This document shows positions 3,990 to 18,491 of a stretch of 32,000 nt of DNA, one piece after another. The translations under genes and the position numbers were made by a program. The notes under the pieces were generated by a model. That model saw only the letters and a list, made by a program, of their open reading frames with translations, was not told where the DNA came from and ran no database searches. Each line of letters begins with the position of its first letter. Positions within the stretch are counted from its first letter, which is position 1. The DNA comes from Candidatus Saccharimonadota bacterium (GTDB taxonomy: Bacteria > Patescibacteriota > Saccharimonadia > Saccharimonadales > Saccharimonadaceae), in assembly GCA_039920285.1 (NCBI GenBank), contig JBDSDX010000001.1, forward strand, positions 420,001 to 452,000, read 5' to 3'.

Positions 3990-4012
3990 ACTCGGCTTTC
4001 GGCCGAGTTTTT
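3990..4012 (+). terminator. Intrinsic terminator after the tRNA pair
   Basis: ACTCGGC-tttc-GCCGAGT followed by TTTTT. Confidence 0.65.
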
Positions 4013-4049
4013 GGTATAATAGATACACTACTTAAAAGAGGGAATTGAA

Positions 4050-4613
4050 ATGATTGCGCTTTGGATTATTATTGGAGTCGTCGTATTACTGGCGCTGTTT
4101 GTATGGGCAACCTACAACGGCCTTATCACTTTGCGTGTTCGTGTTGATGAAGCATGGAGCGATATTAATGTGCAACTCAAGCGTCGTCTTGATTTGATCC
4201 CAAACTTGGTTGAAACGGTCAAAGGCTATGCGAAGCACGAAAAAGGTGTCTTTGAAGCGGTAACAGAAGCCCGTACAAGTGTCATGAATGCAAAAGGTCC
4301 GAAACAAACTGCAGCTGCAGAGAATCAACTTGAAGGTGCATTGAAGAGTATCTTTGCTGTCGCTGAAGCATACCCTGACCTGAAGGCCAGTCAAAACTTT
4401 ATCGAATTGCAACAAGAACTTGTCGACACAGAAGACAAAATTCAAGCATCTCGCCGTTTCTACAATGGTGGTGTTCGTGATCTTAATACTAAGATTCAAA
4501 CCTTTCCTGCAAACGCAGTAGCGGGTATGTTCAATTTCAAGATTCGTGAATTCTTCGACGTTGACGATTCAGAACGTGCTGCAGCCAACAAACCAACTGA
4601 CGTTAAATTCTAG
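4050..4613 (+). CDS. lemA: LemA family membrane protein
   Basis: N-terminal TM helix, then YNGLITLRVRVDEAWSDINVQLKRRLDLIPNLVETVKGYAKHE...RRFYNGGVRDLN, the typical LemA signature. TATAAT at 4015-4020 and an SD GAGGGA lie upstream. Confidence 0.9.
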   Translation: MIALWIIIGVVVLLALFVWATYNGLITLRVRVDEAWSDINVQLKRRLDLIPNLVETVKGYAKHEKGVFEAVTEARTSVMNAKGPKQTAAAENQLEGALKSIFAVAEAYPDLKASQNFIELQQELVDTEDKIQASRRFYNGGVRDLNTKIQTFPANAVAGMFNFKIREFFDVDDSERAAANKPTDVKF

Positions 4614-6810: not shown

Positions 6811-9866
<3,056 letters not shown>

Positions 9867-11056: not shown

Positions 11057-11376
11057 AGGTTGTGTTGTATTCTTTTCTTCTTCTTTACTTCGTTGTCAGA
11101 TCGACCCTAACGACAGTAGTTCGGCGAAGAAGAGAGATTTATCTTGGTGAGGATAAGCGCCCGCCTTCTAGCTTTGTACGCGTGTGCTTCTGAACTTCCT
11201 TATTTAAGCATATACTCAAGGAATATACTAGGGCAGAATGATCAAACTACTTGTGCTTTTACCAGAGGCGGTGCATACTATGAGCATGCTGATGCGCACA
11301 GGGGTACCCTTGCGCTGGTAAAATAAACACACCATAAACATGTTGTGCCCCGGGTGGGCGCGCAGCAGCCAAAGTA

Positions 11377-11403
11377 TCGTCTCTTCAACGGAGGCGATTT
11401 TTT
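11377..11403 (+). terminator. Intrinsic terminator/attenuator 44 nt upstream of the pilin-RCC1 start
   Basis: TCGTCTC-ttcaacg-GAGGCGA (7 bp, one G-U) followed by TTTTTT. No plus-strand gene ends here, so it more likely closes a leader or small RNA. Confidence 0.55.
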
Positions 11404-11446
11404 GTTGTTACGACTAGCCGGTATAGGGCTTATGGTTTATAGTTAT

Positions 11447-12982
11447 ATGAATATGAATGTGGTCCGTAACCGAGCACCTCAACAATACCGCGGTTTTACT
11501 ATCGTCGAGTTGTTAATAGTTATCGTAGTTATTGGAATCCTAGCTACGATTGCGGTAGTTGGTTATAACGGTGTATCACAACGAGCGACTGTCGCTTTGT
11601 TGCAGTCGGAGCTTAACGGAGCTTCGAAGCGTTTGAAGATAGATCAAGTAGAAAGCGGCGCATACCCAGCAACAACAGCCGCTGCAAATAATGGAGTTGG
11701 ACTCAGTGTAACCTCAGGAATAACGTACCAGTACACGGTCGATAACATGGTGAGTCCTCAAACATTTTGCCTTACCGCAACGATAGGTACTGTGGCGTAT
11801 TACATAACTAATAATAATAGTATTCCGATATCTGGGGTGTGTCCGGGACATATTGCTCCGGGTGCACCTTCTTGGCAGGCCTTGTCTCTGGGTGATAATC
11901 ACTCATGCGGTATTGTCAGTAGCAAGGCTTACTGTTGGGGGCGTAATAATTTAGCAAGCGTTAGTCAATTAGGAAATGGAAATACCACCAACACTAAAAT
12001 TCCTGTACCAGTAAGCACAAGCGGTGTTCTCTCTGGAAAAAGTGTCACAGCAATTGACGCAGGGAGTGCACATACCTGTGTTATTGCGGGAGGTGATCCT
12101 TACTGTTGGGGTATTGGTTCGAGTGGACAGCTAGGCCAAGGTGCGTCATCGAGTTCATCTGTGCCAGTCGCTGTGACGGTGAGCGGTGTATTGAGTGGAA
12201 AACAAGTGACAGCGCTAACTGCTGGAGGTAACCATACCTGTGCAATCGCAAGTGGCGCGCTCTATTGTTGGGGCTTTAATTCTTCAGGTCAACTTGGCGA
12301 CGGGTCGACAACCACGCGGAATGCTCCAGTAGCAGTCAGTGTTGCCGGTGTACTTGCGGGTAAAACTGTAACTGCCGTCTCGGCTGGGACTGACGGTACC
12401 TGTGCAATCGCAAGTGGCGCGCTTTATTGCTGGGGGTCGGCTGCCCAGGGTCAAAATGGTGACGGCACTACTGTTGATTCATTATTGCCAGTAGCTGTAG
12501 ATACTTCGGGTGCGCTGTCTGGCAAAGTACCAACGGATGTTGCTCGAGGAAATTACCATGCTTGCGCCGTTGCAAGTGGTTCGGCGTATTGTTGGGGTTC
12601 GAATACGAATGGCGCGCTCGGTGTCGGATTTAGCCCAGGCGCCAACCCTGTAGCAGTATCGACTGCTGGTGTACTTGCAGGCAAAACCGTACAAACGATT
12701 ACTACCGGCCTGTATAGTACTTGTGCGGTAGCCGATGGTGTCGCGTATTGCTGGGGGTCATCGACTGGTGACGGTACGACAAATAACGCCTTTGCTCCAG
12801 TTGCTGTCAGTACTGCTACGGGACTTGCTGGCAAGACGGTCAGCCTAGCTTCAAAAGGCACATCACACACCTGTTTAATGGCAGGTACGGAAATTTATTG
12901 TTGGGGAGCTGCTGTTTATGGGCAGCTTGGAGATAATGCGACTATAACTCGACTCGAACCTTCACTGGTTACAAACCCTTAG
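11447..12982 (+). CDS. Type IV prepilin-like N-terminus fused to a 7-repeat RCC1-like beta-propeller
   Basis: Leader MNMNVVRNRAPQQYRG followed by FTIVELLIVIVVIGILATIAVVGY (G-1, F+1, E+5 prepilin peptidase/methylation motif). Then seven repeats, each with the motif (A/L/P/I)YCWG and a following (S/N)xGQLGDG-like turn. The GTG at 11345 is rejected because it would read through the terminator at 11377-11403. Confidence 0.8.
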   Translation: MNMNVVRNRAPQQYRGFTIVELLIVIVVIGILATIAVVGYNGVSQRATVALLQSELNGASKRLKIDQVESGAYPATTAAANNGVGLSVTSGITYQYTVDNMVSPQTFCLTATIGTVAYYITNNNSIPISGVCPGHIAPGAPSWQALSLGDNHSCGIVSSKAYCWGRNNLASVSQLGNGNTTNTKIPVPVSTSGVLSGKSVTAIDAGSAHTCVIAGGDPYCWGIGSSGQLGQGASSSSSVPVAVTVSGVLSGKQVTALTAGGNHTCAIASGALYCWGFNSSGQLGDGSTTTRNAPVAVSVAGVLAGKTVTAVSAGTDGTCAIASGALYCWGSAAQGQNGDGTTVDSLLPVAVDTSGALSGKVPTDVARGNYHACAVASGSAYCWGSNTNGALGVGFSPGANPVAVSTAGVLAGKTVQTITTGLYSTCAVADGVAYCWGSSTGDGTTNNAFAPVAVSTATGLAGKTVSLASKGTSHTCLMAGTEIYCWGAAVYGQLGDNATITRLEPSLVTNP

Positions 12983-13007
12983 CTAACCTGATATAGTGGT
13001 AGACGTT

Positions 13008-15881
13008 ATGCAGCGTTACAATCCTTCTGAAATAGAACCAAAATGGCAGCAAATCTGGGAAGACCAGAAGGCTAATGAGGTAAAAGAAGACCCGACAAAA
13101 GTGAAAACATATGTCGCGGGTATGTTCCCGTATCCAAGTGGTGCTGGTATGCACACAGGACACGCCTTCAGCTACTCAATTGTTGATGCTATCGCTCGCT
13201 TCAACCGCCAACATGGCCATAATGTTTTAAACCCAATGGGCTGGGATACGTTTGGACTCCCGGCTGAAAACTATGCTATTAAAACAGGGACTGCACCAGC
13301 AAAAGTCACGGCTGAAAATATTGCTAACTTTAAAAAGCAATTCAAACGCATGGGTGTCAGTATTGACTGGTCACGTGAGATTAACACGAGTGATCCGGAG
13401 TATTACAAATGGACCCAATGGGTCTTTACGAAATTATTTGAACGGGGCCTTGCCTATCAAAAAGAGTCATTACAGTGGTGGTGTCCTGTCGATAAAACTG
13501 TCCTTGCCAACGAACAAGTAGAGGGCGGTCACTGTTGGCGCTGTGGTAGTTTAGTTGAAAAGAAATCTATGAAACAGTGGTTTTTTAAGATTACTGAGTA
13601 CGCTGATGCGCTTCTCGATGAAATTGAAGACCTTGATTGGCCACAAAAGATTAAAACCGCGCAAACGAACTGGATTGGTAAGTCTGTCGGTGCTGAAATT
13701 GAATTCAAAGTTGATGAGCGCCAAGATATTATTACCGTCTTTACGACCCGTCCTGATACTATTTTCGGTGCGTCATTCTTGGTTATCGCTCCCGAACATT
13801 CACTTGCAAAAGAGTTAGGCGTCGGTGAGTTTAAACAAGCGACGGCTGACTATATTAATAAGGCAGTCAAAAAATCCGAAATTGACCGGACGAATGATAC
13901 CAAAGAAAAAACAGGTGTCTTTACAGGAAGTTATGCAATCAACCCAGCAAATGGCGAAAAAGTGCCAATCTGGGTGGCTGATTATGTCCTTGGTGGGTAC
14001 GGTACGGGTGCGATTATGGCGGTTCCGGCTCACGACGAGCGTGATAACGCTTTCGCTGAAAAATATCGTTTACCAATTATTCAAGTTGTGACTCCAGCAA
14101 TTTTAGATCAAGATAATCCTCCAATAGAAGGTAAAGAAGATACCGATCGTGATGTCGTCATGTGTTTGATTAAGCACCCGACCGACGATACGTATCTCAC
14201 ACTTCGTTGGACCGATTTCCCGTGGCACAATTTTGTTATGGGTGGCATCGAACGTGATGAAGACGTCGAAAAAGCAGCGCTTCGTGAGATTCAGGAAGAG
14301 ACTGGATTTACCGACCTTGAGCTCGTTGATCGTCTTCCAGTTGAGATTAACAGCAAATTCTATGCTGCCCACAAAGACGTTAATCGTAATATCTTTACAA
14401 AAGTCCTCCTCTTCCAGATGAAGAGTCTTACCCAAGGCGACACGAATCGTGAAGAACACGAGAAATTTGACGTCGAATGGACTCCTGCAGATGAGCTTCC
14501 TGAGCTGAAACCTGTTTCTGAGCTCCCTCACATTCTTCGTTGGCTTGGTGGTGAAAAAATGATGCACGCTGGGGAAGGTACACTCGTTAATTCTGGCATT
14601 TTTAGCGGTAAGACAACTGATCAAGCTCGTGAAGAAATTGTTGCTTGGCTTGAAGATAAGAAACTTGGTCACGCCAAGACAACCTATCGTATGCGTGATT
14701 GGCTGATTAGTCGTCAACGATACTGGGGTGCACCAATTCCTATTATTTATTGTCCTGATCATGGTGCTGTCGCGGTCCCTGAAGATCAACTTCCTGTCAT
14801 TTTACCCGAAATCGAAGACTACGCACCAAAAGGCGATGGTCTATCAGCACTTGCCAAAGCTGATGATTGGGTGAATACGACATGCCCAGACTGTGGCAAG
14901 CCCGCGAAACGCGAAACGGATACGATGGATGGCTACGCTTGTAGTAGTTGGTACTTGCTTCGATACGCTGATCCGCACAATGCTGAGCGTGCCTGGGACC
15001 CTGAAACGGTCAATTACTGGAACCCACTTGATTATTATGTTGGTGGTGATCACGCAGTTGCTCACTTGTTGTACGTCCGGTTCTGGACACATGTCTTCTA
15101 TGACATGAAGCTCGTGAACTTCAAAGAACCAGTCAAAAAACTGATTTATCACGGCTATATTAATGCTGAAGATGGCCGAAAGATGAGCAAGAGTCTTGGT
15201 AATGTTACCGATCCACTCGACGTTATTGATCAAGGCTACGGTGCTGATGCGCTCCGCACGTACATGCTCTTTATGGGTCCTATTGAAATGGATGCTGCTT
15301 GGAGCTCAAAAGGGATCGCGGGTGTCTTCCGTTTCCTTGGCCGTATTTGGACGTTGTCTCAACAGTGTCTTGAGGCTGATAAGACCGAGACAAAGAATGA
15401 CCAAGCGATTCGAGTTATTCAACACAAAACGATCCGTAAAGTAACAGATGACTTCCGTCGTCTGAGTTTTAATACCGCGATTTCTGCCATGATGGAATAT
15501 ACCAATGAACTATACAAGTTTAAGATTGACGGTTTTTCAGAAGATGTCTGGCACGAAGCATTGACGACATTATTCCAACTGATTGCACCATTTGCTCCGC
15601 ATATGGCTGATGAACTTTGGAATCAATATGGTAATGACGGGTTGATTCAAAATACACCGTGGCCTGTATGGGACGATGCATTGATTGTTGAAGAAGTGAT
15701 CACTATTGCAGTCCAAGTGAATGGAAAACTCCGTGGTGAGATTTCAGTTGCGAAGGATCTTGATGCTGAGGAAATTAAGTCCCAAGCGTTAGCACACGAA
15801 AATGTCGCTAAATTTGTTGGCGACAAAAAACCAGCCAAGGTGATTTATGTCCTTGGCCGGCTTGTAAATATTGTCGTTTAG
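13008..15881 (+). CDS. leuS: Leucyl-tRNA synthetase with an inserted Nudix domain in the CP1/editing region
   Basis: Collinear with bacterial LeuS, including the CWRC zinc knuckle and the editing segment TTRPDT. HIGH-type motif (PYPSGAGMHTGH) and KMSKS are both present. It carries about 160 extra aa (nt 14091-14570). ATG 13008 is preferred over GTG 12996. Confidence 0.95.
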   Translation: MQRYNPSEIEPKWQQIWEDQKANEVKEDPTKVKTYVAGMFPYPSGAGMHTGHAFSYSIVDAIARFNRQHGHNVLNPMGWDTFGLPAENYAIKTGTAPAKVTAENIANFKKQFKRMGVSIDWSREINTSDPEYYKWTQWVFTKLFERGLAYQKESLQWWCPVDKTVLANEQVEGGHCWRCGSLVEKKSMKQWFFKITEYADALLDEIEDLDWPQKIKTAQTNWIGKSVGAEIEFKVDERQDIITVFTTRPDTIFGASFLVIAPEHSLAKELGVGEFKQATADYINKAVKKSEIDRTNDTKEKTGVFTGSYAINPANGEKVPIWVADYVLGGYGTGAIMAVPAHDERDNAFAEKYRLPIIQVVTPAILDQDNPPIEGKEDTDRDVVMCLIKHPTDDTYLTLRWTDFPWHNFVMGGIERDEDVEKAALREIQEETGFTDLELVDRLPVEINSKFYAAHKDVNRNIFTKVLLFQMKSLTQGDTNREEHEKFDVEWTPADELPELKPVSELPHILRWLGGEKMMHAGEGTLVNSGIFSGKTTDQAREEIVAWLEDKKLGHAKTTYRMRDWLISRQRYWGAPIPIIYCPDHGAVAVPEDQLPVILPEIEDYAPKGDGLSALAKADDWVNTTCPDCGKPAKRETDTMDGYACSSWYLLRYADPHNAERAWDPETVNYWNPLDYYVGGDHAVAHLLYVRFWTHVFYDMKLVNFKEPVKKLIYHGYINAEDGRKMSKSLGNVTDPLDVIDQGYGADALRTYMLFMGPIEMDAAWSSKGIAGVFRFLGRIWTLSQQCLEADKTETKNDQAIRVIQHKTIRKVTDDFRRLSFNTAISAMMEYTNELYKFKIDGFSEDVWHEALTTLFQLIAPFAPHMADELWNQYGNDGLIQNTPWPVWDDALIVEEVITIAVQVNGKLRGEISVAKDLDAEEIKSQALAHENVAKFVGDKKPAKVIYVLGRLVNIVV

Positions 15882-16838: not shown

Positions 16839-17300
16839 ATGGCATCTAATCGTCATCTCGGTCGCATCGTCGCTTTACAGACACTCTATGAGTTCGAGTT
16901 TCGAACCCAGTCTGAAGACCCTACTGTTGACGTCAAGGAAATCCTTGCACGTAACTTAGCGCGTTATGAAGAAGCTATTGATGATACTGACTTCGTTTCA
17001 GCCCTCGTTGACGGGGTGCTGAAGGAACAAGCCGATATTGACATTAAGATTCAACCAATTGCGCCTGACTGGCCAATTGAACAGATTGCTCGCGTCGATC
17101 GTACGATTCTTCGTATCGGCGTCTATGAACTGCTCCATCAAGGTAAGGTCGTCCCACCTAAGGTGGCGATTAACGAAGCAGTCGAGCTTGCTAAAGCGTT
17201 TGGTTCGGATAACTCGAGTAAGTTTGTGAACGGTGTGCTGGGAACAGCGTACCGCACGCTTGTAGAGGGAGCCGAAGATGGCACCAGCACCACAGTTTGA
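16839..17300 (+). CDS. nusB: Transcription antitermination factor NusB
   Basis: RHLGRIVALQTLYEFEF...RVDRTILRIGVYELL...PPKVAINEAVELAKAFGSDNSSKFVNGVLG are typical NusB blocks. Confidence 0.9.
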   Translation: MASNRHLGRIVALQTLYEFEFRTQSEDPTVDVKEILARNLARYEEAIDDTDFVSALVDGVLKEQADIDIKIQPIAPDWPIEQIARVDRTILRIGVYELLHQGKVVPPKVAINEAVELAKAFGSDNSSKFVNGVLGTAYRTLVEGAEDGTSTTV

Positions 17301-17778
17301 TAAATTCAAAAAATATTTCAACCGCAATAAACGACCATCCATTCAGGAAATTGTCCGCGAACCGACCGCAGGTGGAATTGTCTTTCGTCGTAATGACAAA
17401 GAAGAAATTGAATTTCTCTTAATTCAGGACCATAAAGATCGTTGGACAATTCCAAAAGGTCACATTGAAGAAGGTGAAACTGCTCAACAGGCTGCGAAAC
17501 GTGAGATTGGTGAAGAAGCCGGTCTTATGAATACCGAAATGCACGGTTGGCTTGGGAAAATCCATTTCCGATACCGACGTATCGACAAGTTGGTACTGAT
17601 TTCTCAACAGGTTTATCTGATGAAGGTGAAGACTGACGGCGAAGAAATTCAAAAAGAAGACTGGATGAACGGCATTAAGTGGTTCTCATTTTACGATGCG
17701 CTCGATGCGATCGAATATGAGGACATCGGTAAGCTGTTGATGTTGGGTATGAAGCGAATTAGGCAGGAGAAATTATAG
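17278..17778 (+). CDS. Nudix hydrolase (free-standing)
   Basis: Nudix box GHIEEGETAQQAAKREIGEEAGL (GX5EX7REUXEEXGU). GAGGGAG SD. Overlaps the nusB end by 23 nt and abuts rnc. Confidence 0.85.
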   Translation: MAPAPQFDKFKKYFNRNKRPSIQEIVREPTAGGIVFRRNDKEEIEFLLIQDHKDRWTIPKGHIEEGETAQQAAKREIGEEAGLMNTEMHGWLGKIHFRYRRIDKLVLISQQVYLMKVKTDGEEIQKEDWMNGIKWFSFYDALDAIEYEDIGKLLMLGMKRIRQEKL

Positions 17779-18491
17779 TGACGGGAATGCAAGTGGGTCC
17801 GTATCAAGATTTTGCACGCGAGACGTTGGGCTTTGAATTTAGTAACCTCGATTTACTGGTGACCGCTTTTACGCATCGTTCATATGTTAATGAACACCGC
17901 AAAAGCGTTCACGAGCACAACGAACGACTTGAGTTCCTCGGTGATGCCGTCCTTGAACTCGTTGTGACTGATTTCTTATTTAATAATTACGCAGAACCAG
18001 AAGGAATCTTGACGAGTTGGCGTGCGTCATTGGTTCGGACTGAAAGTATTGGTGAAGCGGGAAAGCTTCTTAACTACGAATCGTTGATTCGAATGAGTCG
18101 TGGTGAAAAACAAGGAGGCGACCGCGCTCGTCAACAAATCCTCGCCAATGCTTTCGAAGCACTTATCGGTGCAATCTATCTTGAGCGTGGATACGACGAT
18201 GCCGCGGTATTTATTCAAAAGAATATCTCAAGCAAACTCGATCACATCATTGCCGAAGGAAGCTGGCGTGATCCAAAGTCACATCTTCAAGAAGTCATGC
18301 AGCGTAAAGACAACGTCACGCCACGCTACGTGGTACTTGAAGAAGTCGGTCCTGATCACGACAAAGTATTTACCCTCGGAGTCTATTCAAACGATCGACT
18401 TGTCAGCAAAGGAACTGGTCCGAGTAAACAAGCTGCTCAGCAAGAAGCGGCGAAAGCAGCCTTGGCCTTCTACACTGACGGCGAAAAATAA
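17778..18491 (+). CDS. rnc: Ribonuclease III
   Basis: RNase III signature ERLEFLGDAVLE, and a C-terminal dsRBD (GPDHDKVFTLGV...GTGPSKQAAQQEAAKAAL). The GTG start overlaps the upstream stop (TAGTG); ATG 17787 is an alternative. Confidence 0.95.
   Translation: MTGMQVGPYQDFARETLGFEFSNLDLLVTAFTHRSYVNEHRKSVHEHNERLEFLGDAVLELVVTDFLFNNYAEPEGILTSWRASLVRTESIGEAGKLLNYESLIRMSRGEKQGGDRARQQILANAFEALIGAIYLERGYDDAAVFIQKNISSKLDHIIAEGSWRDPKSHLQEVMQRKDNVTPRYVVLEEVGPDHDKVFTLGVYSNDRLVSKGTGPSKQAAQQEAAKAALAFYTDGEK

Follow-up and report, generated by a model that had tools for sequence, protein, structure and literature searches.

Aminoacyl-tRNA synthetases are among the most conserved of enzymes, and the bacterial ones are usually viewed as architecturally fixed, extra catalytic domains on synthetases being seen mainly as a eukaryotic elaboration. 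In the leucyl-tRNA synthetases (LeuRS) of solved structure, which are 760–880 amino acids (aa) long and include the canonical bacterial enzymes of Thermus thermophilus (1h3n, 2bte) and Escherichia coli (4aq7, 4ari), a loop of 16–20 aa occupies the place where the protein studied here has a Nudix domain of 160 aa. This protein is encoded by leuS (13008..15881, on the plus strand, like all window features given below) in a stretch of 32,000 nucleotides, hereafter the window, of contig JBDSDX010000001.1 of a Candidatus Saccharimonadota bacterium, and it shares with the canonical enzymes their family, fold, TIGR00396 model and HIGH, KMSKS, Thr-rich and Asp motifs. On the Nudix side, the insert has the fold and the Nudix box in common with RppH/NudH and with the Nudix hydrolases of diadenosine tetraphosphate (Ap4A) from lupin (1f3y), Chlamydia (CT771) and Aquifex (3i7u), and an aromatic residue at the seventeenth position past its box is compatible with such a relationship; it differs from them, however, in being only 16–23% identical, in scoring about 27 bits where 116 are called for, in being nested rather than free-standing, in its acidity, and in having motifs of its own (an NPP.EGK extension and HK..NR). 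Two precedents can be cited, both by analogy only. Isoleucyl-tRNA synthetases with an N-acetyltransferase (GNAT) domain (NF040702) show a bacterial class Ia synthetase bearing an unrelated enzyme domain, but both the synthetase and the domain are others, and the window protein is no member of that family (58.8 bits against a cutoff of 1999). In NadM-Nudix (NMN adenylyltransferase/Nudix, NCBIfam PRK05379) a Nudix domain is joined to an adenylyl-transfer enzyme; that fusion is end to end and its Nudix part an ADP-ribose pyrophosphatase, whereas the window's Nudix is nested, and the few members of its family that match PRK05379 do so weakly, far under the cutoff. The initial annotation of this DNA, made from the sequence alone, had taken the architecture to be uncharacterised, and full-text literature searches indeed found no paper in which LeuRS, or any synthetase of Patescibacteria, is described with a Nudix domain, nor did structure comparison of the full-length model find a solved LeuRS with such an insert; the word tRNA is absent from the 2017 review of the Nudix clan (PMC5389931). 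What we describe joins two enzyme families, each well known, in a nested arrangement that is itself uncharacterised and that is common in the tiny-genome Saccharibacteria/Patescibacteria.

The LeuRS of the window carries a complete, folded Nudix domain nested in a variable surface loop of the connective peptide 1 (CP1) editing domain. When the protein was compared with solved structures by phmmer, its residues 5–365 aligned with residues 1–362 of T. thermophilus LeuRS (1h3n) and its residues 526–723 with 379–578, and therefore aa 366–525 (14091..14570) replace a 16-residue loop of CP1. The Pfam family NUDIX (PF00293) matches aa 387–516 of the whole protein with 52.7 bits (E 5.8e-14; gathering cutoff 21.1), and the 160-aa segment searched alone with 57.1 bits (E 2.5e-15); the domain includes, ahead of the box, a conserved N-terminal extension of the form D..NPP.EGK...R. 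The Nudix box itself, GGIERDEDVEKAALREIQEETGF (aa 416–438; 14241..14309, recomputed from the start of the reading frame), fits GX5EX7REUXEEXGU exactly and places the predicted catalytic residues at R430, E431, E434 and E435. It is followed by an X-loop region (14358..14384) in which F455 and Y456, at +17 and +18 after the box, precede an H-K-D-V-N-R signature (K460, N463, R464). Modelled by AlphaFold2 (AF2) together with 30 homologous inserts, the segment is predicted with confidence to adopt the alpha/beta/alpha Nudix fold, with a predicted local distance difference test score (pLDDT) of 93.2 and a predicted template-modelling score (pTM) of 0.87, and no region of the full-length model is predicted more confidently than the Nudix part (pLDDT 88–95), whose two linkers are also well defined (83–90). 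A Foldseek comparison of the insert model with the PDB gave 522 matches at E ≤ 0.001, and the 50 of these that were listed are all Nudix-fold enzymes. The insert is also strongly acidic, with a net charge of -16 and an isoelectric point (pI) of 4.65.

The gene that encodes this protein is intact. A single uninterrupted open reading frame (ORF) of 961 aa (12996..15881) contains the whole of leuS, and although the program called its start at the GTG at 12996, homologues begin at M5 (MQRYNP), so that the ATG at 13008 is likely the true start; residue numbers given here count from the called start. The product scores 1010.8 bits against the NCBIfam model TIGR00396 (leuS_bact; cutoff 548.4), in a match split into two stretches by the insert, and its best PDB match by phmmer is T. 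thermophilus LeuRS (E 2.4e-238). An identical protein of 957 aa (P0002, 100%) comes from an independent assembly. We considered and rejected an assembly artefact, given P0002 and the more than 100 homologues that have the same insert in independent assemblies, as well as a recent transfer of the insert, the base composition of which (GC 0.452, GC at third codon positions 0.406) is the same as that of the rest of the gene (0.447 and 0.402). The initial annotation had read the segment at 14091–14570 as a whole Nudix domain of about 160 aa within CP1, with a perfect box and a continuous frame, and not as a linker, a fusion artefact or a pseudogene; all of this is upheld by the 1h3n alignment, the profile scores, the model and the homologues.

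Outside the insert, nothing expected of a LeuRS is missing. We aligned the window's protein with its 120 best LeuS relatives (alignment A3, n = 121, 68–100% identical), and across this set the HIGH-type signature HTGH of the synthetic site (aa 53–56; 13152..13163) and the KMSKS loop (aa 729–733; 15180..15194), both read from the sequence, are invariant regardless of the insert (H53, G55 and H56 in the former), as are the Thr-rich editing motif TTRPDT (aa 250–255; 13743–13760) and the editing motif AHDERD with its conserved Asp (aa 345–350; 14028–14045), with T251, R252, P253, D254, T255, H346, D347, R349 and D350 unchanged whether the insert is present or absent. The N-terminal part of the CP1 editing domain (aa 225–365; 13668..14090) is recognised by Pfam PF13603, the match of which runs over aa 225–371 and covers profile positions 2–146 of 185; the C-terminal part, GEGTLVNSGIFSGK... 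(aa 526–565; 14571..14690), aligns from residue 379 of T. thermophilus LeuRS and leads back toward the catalytic core. The full-length AF2 model (pLDDT 85.8, pTM 0.70) superposes on solved T. thermophilus and E. coli LeuRS (2bte, 4aq7, 5omw) with TMt values of 0.81–0.84. Because the motifs are intact and the predicted fold is canonical, the protein is, to judge from these comparisons, still an ordinary synthetase with ordinary post-transfer editing, and since the editing and synthetic motifs are all present the Nudix domain is an addition to a complete LeuRS and not a replacement of its editing site. Two regions of the full-length model deserve mention, aa 300–303 (13893–13904) and the GGYGTGA loop just before the editing Asp (aa 332–338; 13989–14009); the latter has a pLDDT below 50, is highly conserved in spite of this low score and may be mobile.

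How widespread is the insert among relatives? An insert of more than 100 aa stands at the window's position in 107 of the 121 aligned LeuS, and the other 14 have a loop of 5–12 aa there. The architecture is far more widespread than the initial annotation could tell from the window. Members of this set that carry a name are labelled Saccharibacteria, Microsaccharimonas or 'Patescibacteria group'. Scanning species-representative genomes with a single-sequence query gave 15 LeuS loci with the insert, among them a 92%-identical metagenome-assembled genome (MAG) of Saccharibacteria and Ca. Saccharimonas aalborgensis, and five of the 15 (L012–L016, match at 4001–4400 in each) come from MAGs labelled uncultured Bacilli, Bacillales or Clostridium. 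These five have the same Nudix subfamily at the same LeuS site, with an insert identity of 39–47% and LeuS cores about 50% identical to Nudix-bearing representative LeuS; horizontal transfer, mislabelling or shared ancestry could account for them. A word-index search with the insert alone gave a single match, P0001, a low yield that reflects the limits of the method and not rarity. We rejected P0001 as a candidate free Nudix protein, since it is one piece of a LeuS that has the same insert: in its locus (L001, 36–2736) the leuS of a relative is split by frameshifts into five called genes, and the Nudix piece was annotated by the Joint Genome Institute as 'ADP-ribose pyrophosphatase YjhB', an example of how mis-annotation hides the architecture.

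Among 30 diverse Saccharibacteria inserts, identity to that of the window falls to 16–25%, and still G416, R430, E431, E434, E435, G437, K460 and W495 are invariant; K460 corresponds to K95 in insert numbering, in which the conservation of N98 is 90% or more. Six discrete types can be told apart among the inserts, 23–40% identical between and 54–85% within types, in LeuS cores that are 75–82% identical, and the full catalytic REx2EE set is invariant across all six. Between the window and a 92%-identical relative (L002), nonsynonymous differences per site (pN) amount to 0.053 in the insert and 0.052 in the rest of LeuRS, with a synonymous value (pS) of 0.76 in the insert; synonymous sites are saturated in this pair (pS 0.73–0.76), so that only an upper bound on omega is possible. 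The insert is under strong purifying selection in the window's lineage, the same as the remainder of LeuRS. The tempo of change is uneven, in that insert and core are conserved alike against L002 (92%), whereas against P0003 the core is 87% and the insert 62% identical. The nearest neighbours of the 14 insert-free LeuS are insert-bearing, at 84–92% core identity, and because of this proximity the insert is, on present comparisons, dispensable for LeuRS function and has been gained or lost repeatedly. Swapping of inserts as cassettes by recombination was not demonstrated, since the excess of identity related to insert type is uniform along LeuS (0.02–0.065 in every segment), and core distances near saturation, with an unresolved neighbour-joining order, limit any inference on swapping. 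When covariation between insert presence and LeuRS residues was examined, only the junction positions 363 and 365 stood out strongly, the next-ranked position being 103 (p ~2e-6).

Beyond these close relatives, a HMMER search of 1.84 billion representative proteins with aa 346–555 as the query gave 418 matches at E ≤ 1e-3, of which 226 at E ≤ 1e-10. Of the best 150 of the 418, 132 are LeuS, whole or fragmentary, in which this Nudix subfamily is present, a count biased toward LeuS and toward the window's site by the LeuS flanks contained in the query, and 13 of the same 150 have two or three Nudix copies. Mapped onto an insert-free LeuS profile, 123 Nudix copies lie at the window's site (profile ~362–368), 11 before the WPE..K helix (~208), five at the N-terminal hinge of CP1 (~238–240), two before RETDTM (~477–486) and one at a further site (~436–440). 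Many Patescibacteria LeuS have two or three copies, in tandem or at different sites, among them P0122, P0123, P0124, P0125, P0127, P0129, P0156, P0159, P0169 and P0256. One paralogous clade among the copies before the WPE..K helix has a degenerate box, with AEI for REI and GQ for GE. Other domains of hydrolase type or RNA-binding type were found nested in related LeuS as well: Ser_hydrolase (PF06821) in P0130, P0127 and P0164, HAD_2 in P0141, a Ham1/ITPase domain (Ham1p_like, 197 bits) in P0178 with an extra segment at about profile position 438, and ASCH in P0019 and in locus L005, with ASCH and Nudix co-nested in some LeuS. It appears from these sequences that Patescibacteria LeuRS is a permissive scaffold that has repeatedly accreted hydrolase modules. 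P0178, a LeuS of 1330 aa, goes by the NCBI cluster name RdgB/HAM1 pyrophosphatase, Candidatus Paceibacterota. In P0147, a LeuS with two Nudix domains and a long additional region between profile positions ~433 and ~481, Trp occupies otherwise invariant Gly positions ('QWGVEE', 'EETWF'), which suggests that its lineage reads UGA as Gly and that the wrong genetic code was used for the translation.

Stand-alone relatives of the subfamily, 160–190 aa long, exist at 42–49% identity. One of them, P0273 (168 aa), occurs on 305 contigs; in loci L018–L023 its gene (8001–8507) lies 89 bp upstream of thrS, in the same orientation, with a DUF3850/ASCH gene about 0.9 kb upstream and miaA, infC, rpmI and rplT nearby. 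There is no consistent context for the stand-alone members, however, as P0272, P0275 and P0277 have unrelated neighbours.

Clues to the substrate of the nested domain come from its relatives. Members of the subfamily are marked by KH..(D/E)..YL.L.W, the Nudix box, aromatic residues at both +17 and +18, and HK..NR. Of 189 domains of the family, 139 have a strict box and 90% a pI below 7. Among 35 members, matches to NCBIfam families were to RppH (31), NudB (29), NudE (24) and YtkD (23), all with low scores. The best single-sequence PDB match of the insert is lupin Ap4A hydrolase (1f3y), and its best profile matches are AvrM14-A/B (8dp8/8dp9; 9.5e-10) and 2azw. AvrM14 decaps mRNA; it is a secreted eukaryotic effector of flax rust and not part of a synthetase, and its profile alignment with the insert extends through the K-D..R region. 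By fold, the top Foldseek match is 2azw (E 2e-9, TM 0.71), a MutT/Nudix protein of Enterococcus faecalis with no assigned function and again not part of a synthetase, followed by a run of E. coli RppH entries (TM 0.65–0.70, including the Ap4A complex 7sp3) and then by NudI, CT771 and Aquifex Ap4A hydrolases. A Tyr in the X-loop some 17 residues beyond the box accompanies the ability to cleave diadenosine polyphosphates (ApnA), according to the passage on Dunn 1999 in the review cited above (PMC5389931). Of 150 family domains, 141 have F or Y at +17 and 112 have a Tyr somewhere from +16 to +18, which is compatible with this rule, although one aromatic residue by itself is not specific. Taken together, sequence and model lean toward a NudH- or ApnA-hydrolase-like enzyme acting on a small nucleoside polyphosphate, and the strong acidity is more in keeping with a small-molecule substrate than with a free enzyme that binds RNA.

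Our preferred explanation, to which we give a probability of about one half, is that the insert would be an active accessory pyrophosphohydrolase akin to NudH and the Ap4A hydrolases that is hosted on LeuRS and takes no part in proofreading. The module would use its conserved Glu cluster and Mg2+ to cleave a small nucleoside-polyphosphate compound, the likeliest substrates being dinucleoside polyphosphates (Ap4A, for instance) or a related NpnN- or nucleoside triphosphate (NTP)-type compound, and would represent a housekeeping activity, separate from leucine proofreading, that in genome-reduced bacteria rides on an essential enzyme and is hence co-expressed with it. Catalysis is likely because the R, the three E and the G of the box, together with K460 and W495, are invariant across inserts that are only 16–40% identical, and because purifying selection on the insert is as strong as on the remaining gene in the window's lineage; we infer from this that the nested domain is a catalytically active, Mg2+-dependent pyrophosphohydrolase. 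That it is hosted, rather than a working part of the synthetase, is argued by close relatives that repeatedly lack the insert, by the existence of at least four insertion sites and up to three copies per LeuS, by the unrelated hydrolases (Ham1, HAD, Ser_hydrolase, ASCH) that nest in the same scaffold, by the free-standing relatives, and by the lack of convincing covariation with LeuRS away from the junction. The initial annotation had proposed adenylate or ApnA clearance, or a new editing step, for the insert. An ApnA-type hydrolase is plausible given the RppH and Ap4A relatives and the conserved F455/Y456, while a new editing step is unlikely, the editing residues being invariant with or without the insert; an obligatory coupling to LeuRS chemistry found no support in the patchy presence, varied sites, other nested hydrolases and covariation just mentioned.

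Several of our results do weigh against this explanation. On the side of hosting, the near confinement of the subfamily to LeuS (132 of the best 150 matches) could mean functional coupling instead of passive hosting, three of the insertion sites cluster around CP1, the linkers are predicted to be rigid (pLDDT 83–90), and the abundant stand-alone P0273 next to thrS hints at a link to aminoacyl-tRNA synthetases. On the side of the substrate, the similarity behind the assignment is weak and the motif a single residue: no curated NCBIfam equivalog cutoff was reached by the insert, the best being RppH (PRK00714 series) with 26.8 bits against 116, the window's residue at +17 is Phe, with Tyr only at +18, and AvrM14, its best solved relative by profile search, points toward RNA ends.

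In a broader alternative, which seems to us rather unlikely, the Nudix domain would be functionally wired into LeuRS, where it would either break down a nucleotide that the synthetase makes as a side product or in error (Ap4A/ApnA or a misactivated adenylate) or else act on the 5' end of the tRNA that LeuRS binds. Clearance or proofreading coupled in cis, in which the domain would act on the Ap4A and Ap3A that LeuRS itself makes (from leucyl-AMP and ATP) or on misactivated aminoacyl-adenylates channelled from the synthetic or editing site, is one such form, and we regard it as unlikely. It would account for the ApnA/RppH leaning of the similarity, for the near exclusivity to LeuS and the several sites that surround CP1, for linkers whose predicted confidence suggests a fixed pose and not a floppy tether, and for the stand-alone relative adjoining thrS. 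Nevertheless, it would have to accommodate that the insert is repeatedly missing in very close relatives, that site position and copy number vary, leaving no single conserved geometry, that the editing residues do not change with the insert and no active-site position covaries with it, and that other nested domains (Ham1, HAD) are unrelated to adenylate chemistry. Aminoacyl-adenylates, moreover, are acyl-phosphate anhydrides, which are known as substrates of HIT enzymes and are not known as substrates of Nudix enzymes.

An RppH-like pyrophosphohydrolase of RNA 5' ends, which would remove pyrophosphate or a nucleotide cap (triphosphate, NAD, Np4A) from tRNA-Leu or other RNAs with LeuRS as an RNA-binding platform, is in our view improbable. 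RppH is both the curated family most often matched and the main Foldseek neighbour with a known function, AvrM14 is the top PDB profile match, YtkD, an 'RNA deprotection pyrophosphohydrolase', matches 23 of 35 members, and in LeuRS-tRNA complexes CP1 and its hinges lie close to the tRNA acceptor end. All these scores are, however, far under the family cutoffs, the insert is strongly acidic as well as dispensable in close relatives, and RNase P cleavage leaves mature bacterial tRNAs with a 5' monophosphate, so that no substrate is evident. We consider quite improbable a non-catalytic module, be it a nucleotide sensor or a regulatory, structural or protein-interaction domain: the degenerate boxes (AEI, GQ) of some paralogous copies before the WPE..K helix would suit it, and non-enzymatic proteins of the Nudix fold do exist (PMC5389931), but neither in the type found in the window nor in any of the six Saccharibacteria types does the REx2EE set vary, despite very low identity, which is typical of retained catalysis. 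Very improbable, finally, is a rapidly diversifying conflict or adaptation cassette that would neutralise a toxin, inhibitor or signal of nucleotide type directed against LeuRS or translation and be swapped or lost under changing pressures, as the divergence of the six insert types within far more similar cores, the patchy presence and the weak matches of 19 of 35 members to the PADLOC candidate-defence Nudix model PDC-S07 are set against the generic Nudix similarity of those matches (best E 5.6e-7), for which we rejected membership in a defence system, against core distances near saturation with no local recombination signal beside the insert, and against purifying rather than diversifying selection between the window and L002.

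With the accessory hydrolase hosted on LeuRS as the preferred explanation, a second, apparently active hydrolase would sit within the proofreading domain of an essential synthetase. If only hosted there, it would show ultra-small genomes packing housekeeping enzymes into permissive loops of essential proteins. If it is instead coupled to LeuRS, it would represent a new kind of synthetase-linked quality control or of turnover of the alarmone Ap4A; were the domain truly wired in, this would be a third hydrolytic quality-control or signalling site on a Patescibacteria aminoacyl-tRNA synthetase, and the nested Ham1, HAD, ASCH and serine hydrolase domains would make the LeuRS of the candidate phyla radiation (CPR) a multi-enzyme hub of 'nucleotide hygiene'. 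The architecture also matters for annotation, as its fragments pass under wrong labels (free Nudix, ADP-ribose pyrophosphatase, RdgB), for drug-target thinking on LeuRS editing domains, and for protein engineering, since natural insertion-tolerant CP1 sites are marked by these inserts.

As for the surroundings of leuS, the gene directly upstream (11345–12982) encodes a protein in which a type IV pilin-like, prokaryotic N-terminal methylation motif precedes beta-propeller blades of RCC1 repeats. The separate Nudix gene at 17278–17778 that the initial annotation had noted is real (Pfam 65.1 bits); it overlaps the end of nusB (16839–17300) and abuts rnc (17778–18491). As a paralogue or source of the insert it was rejected, its product belonging to a different subfamily and being 26% identical to the insert over 80 aa.

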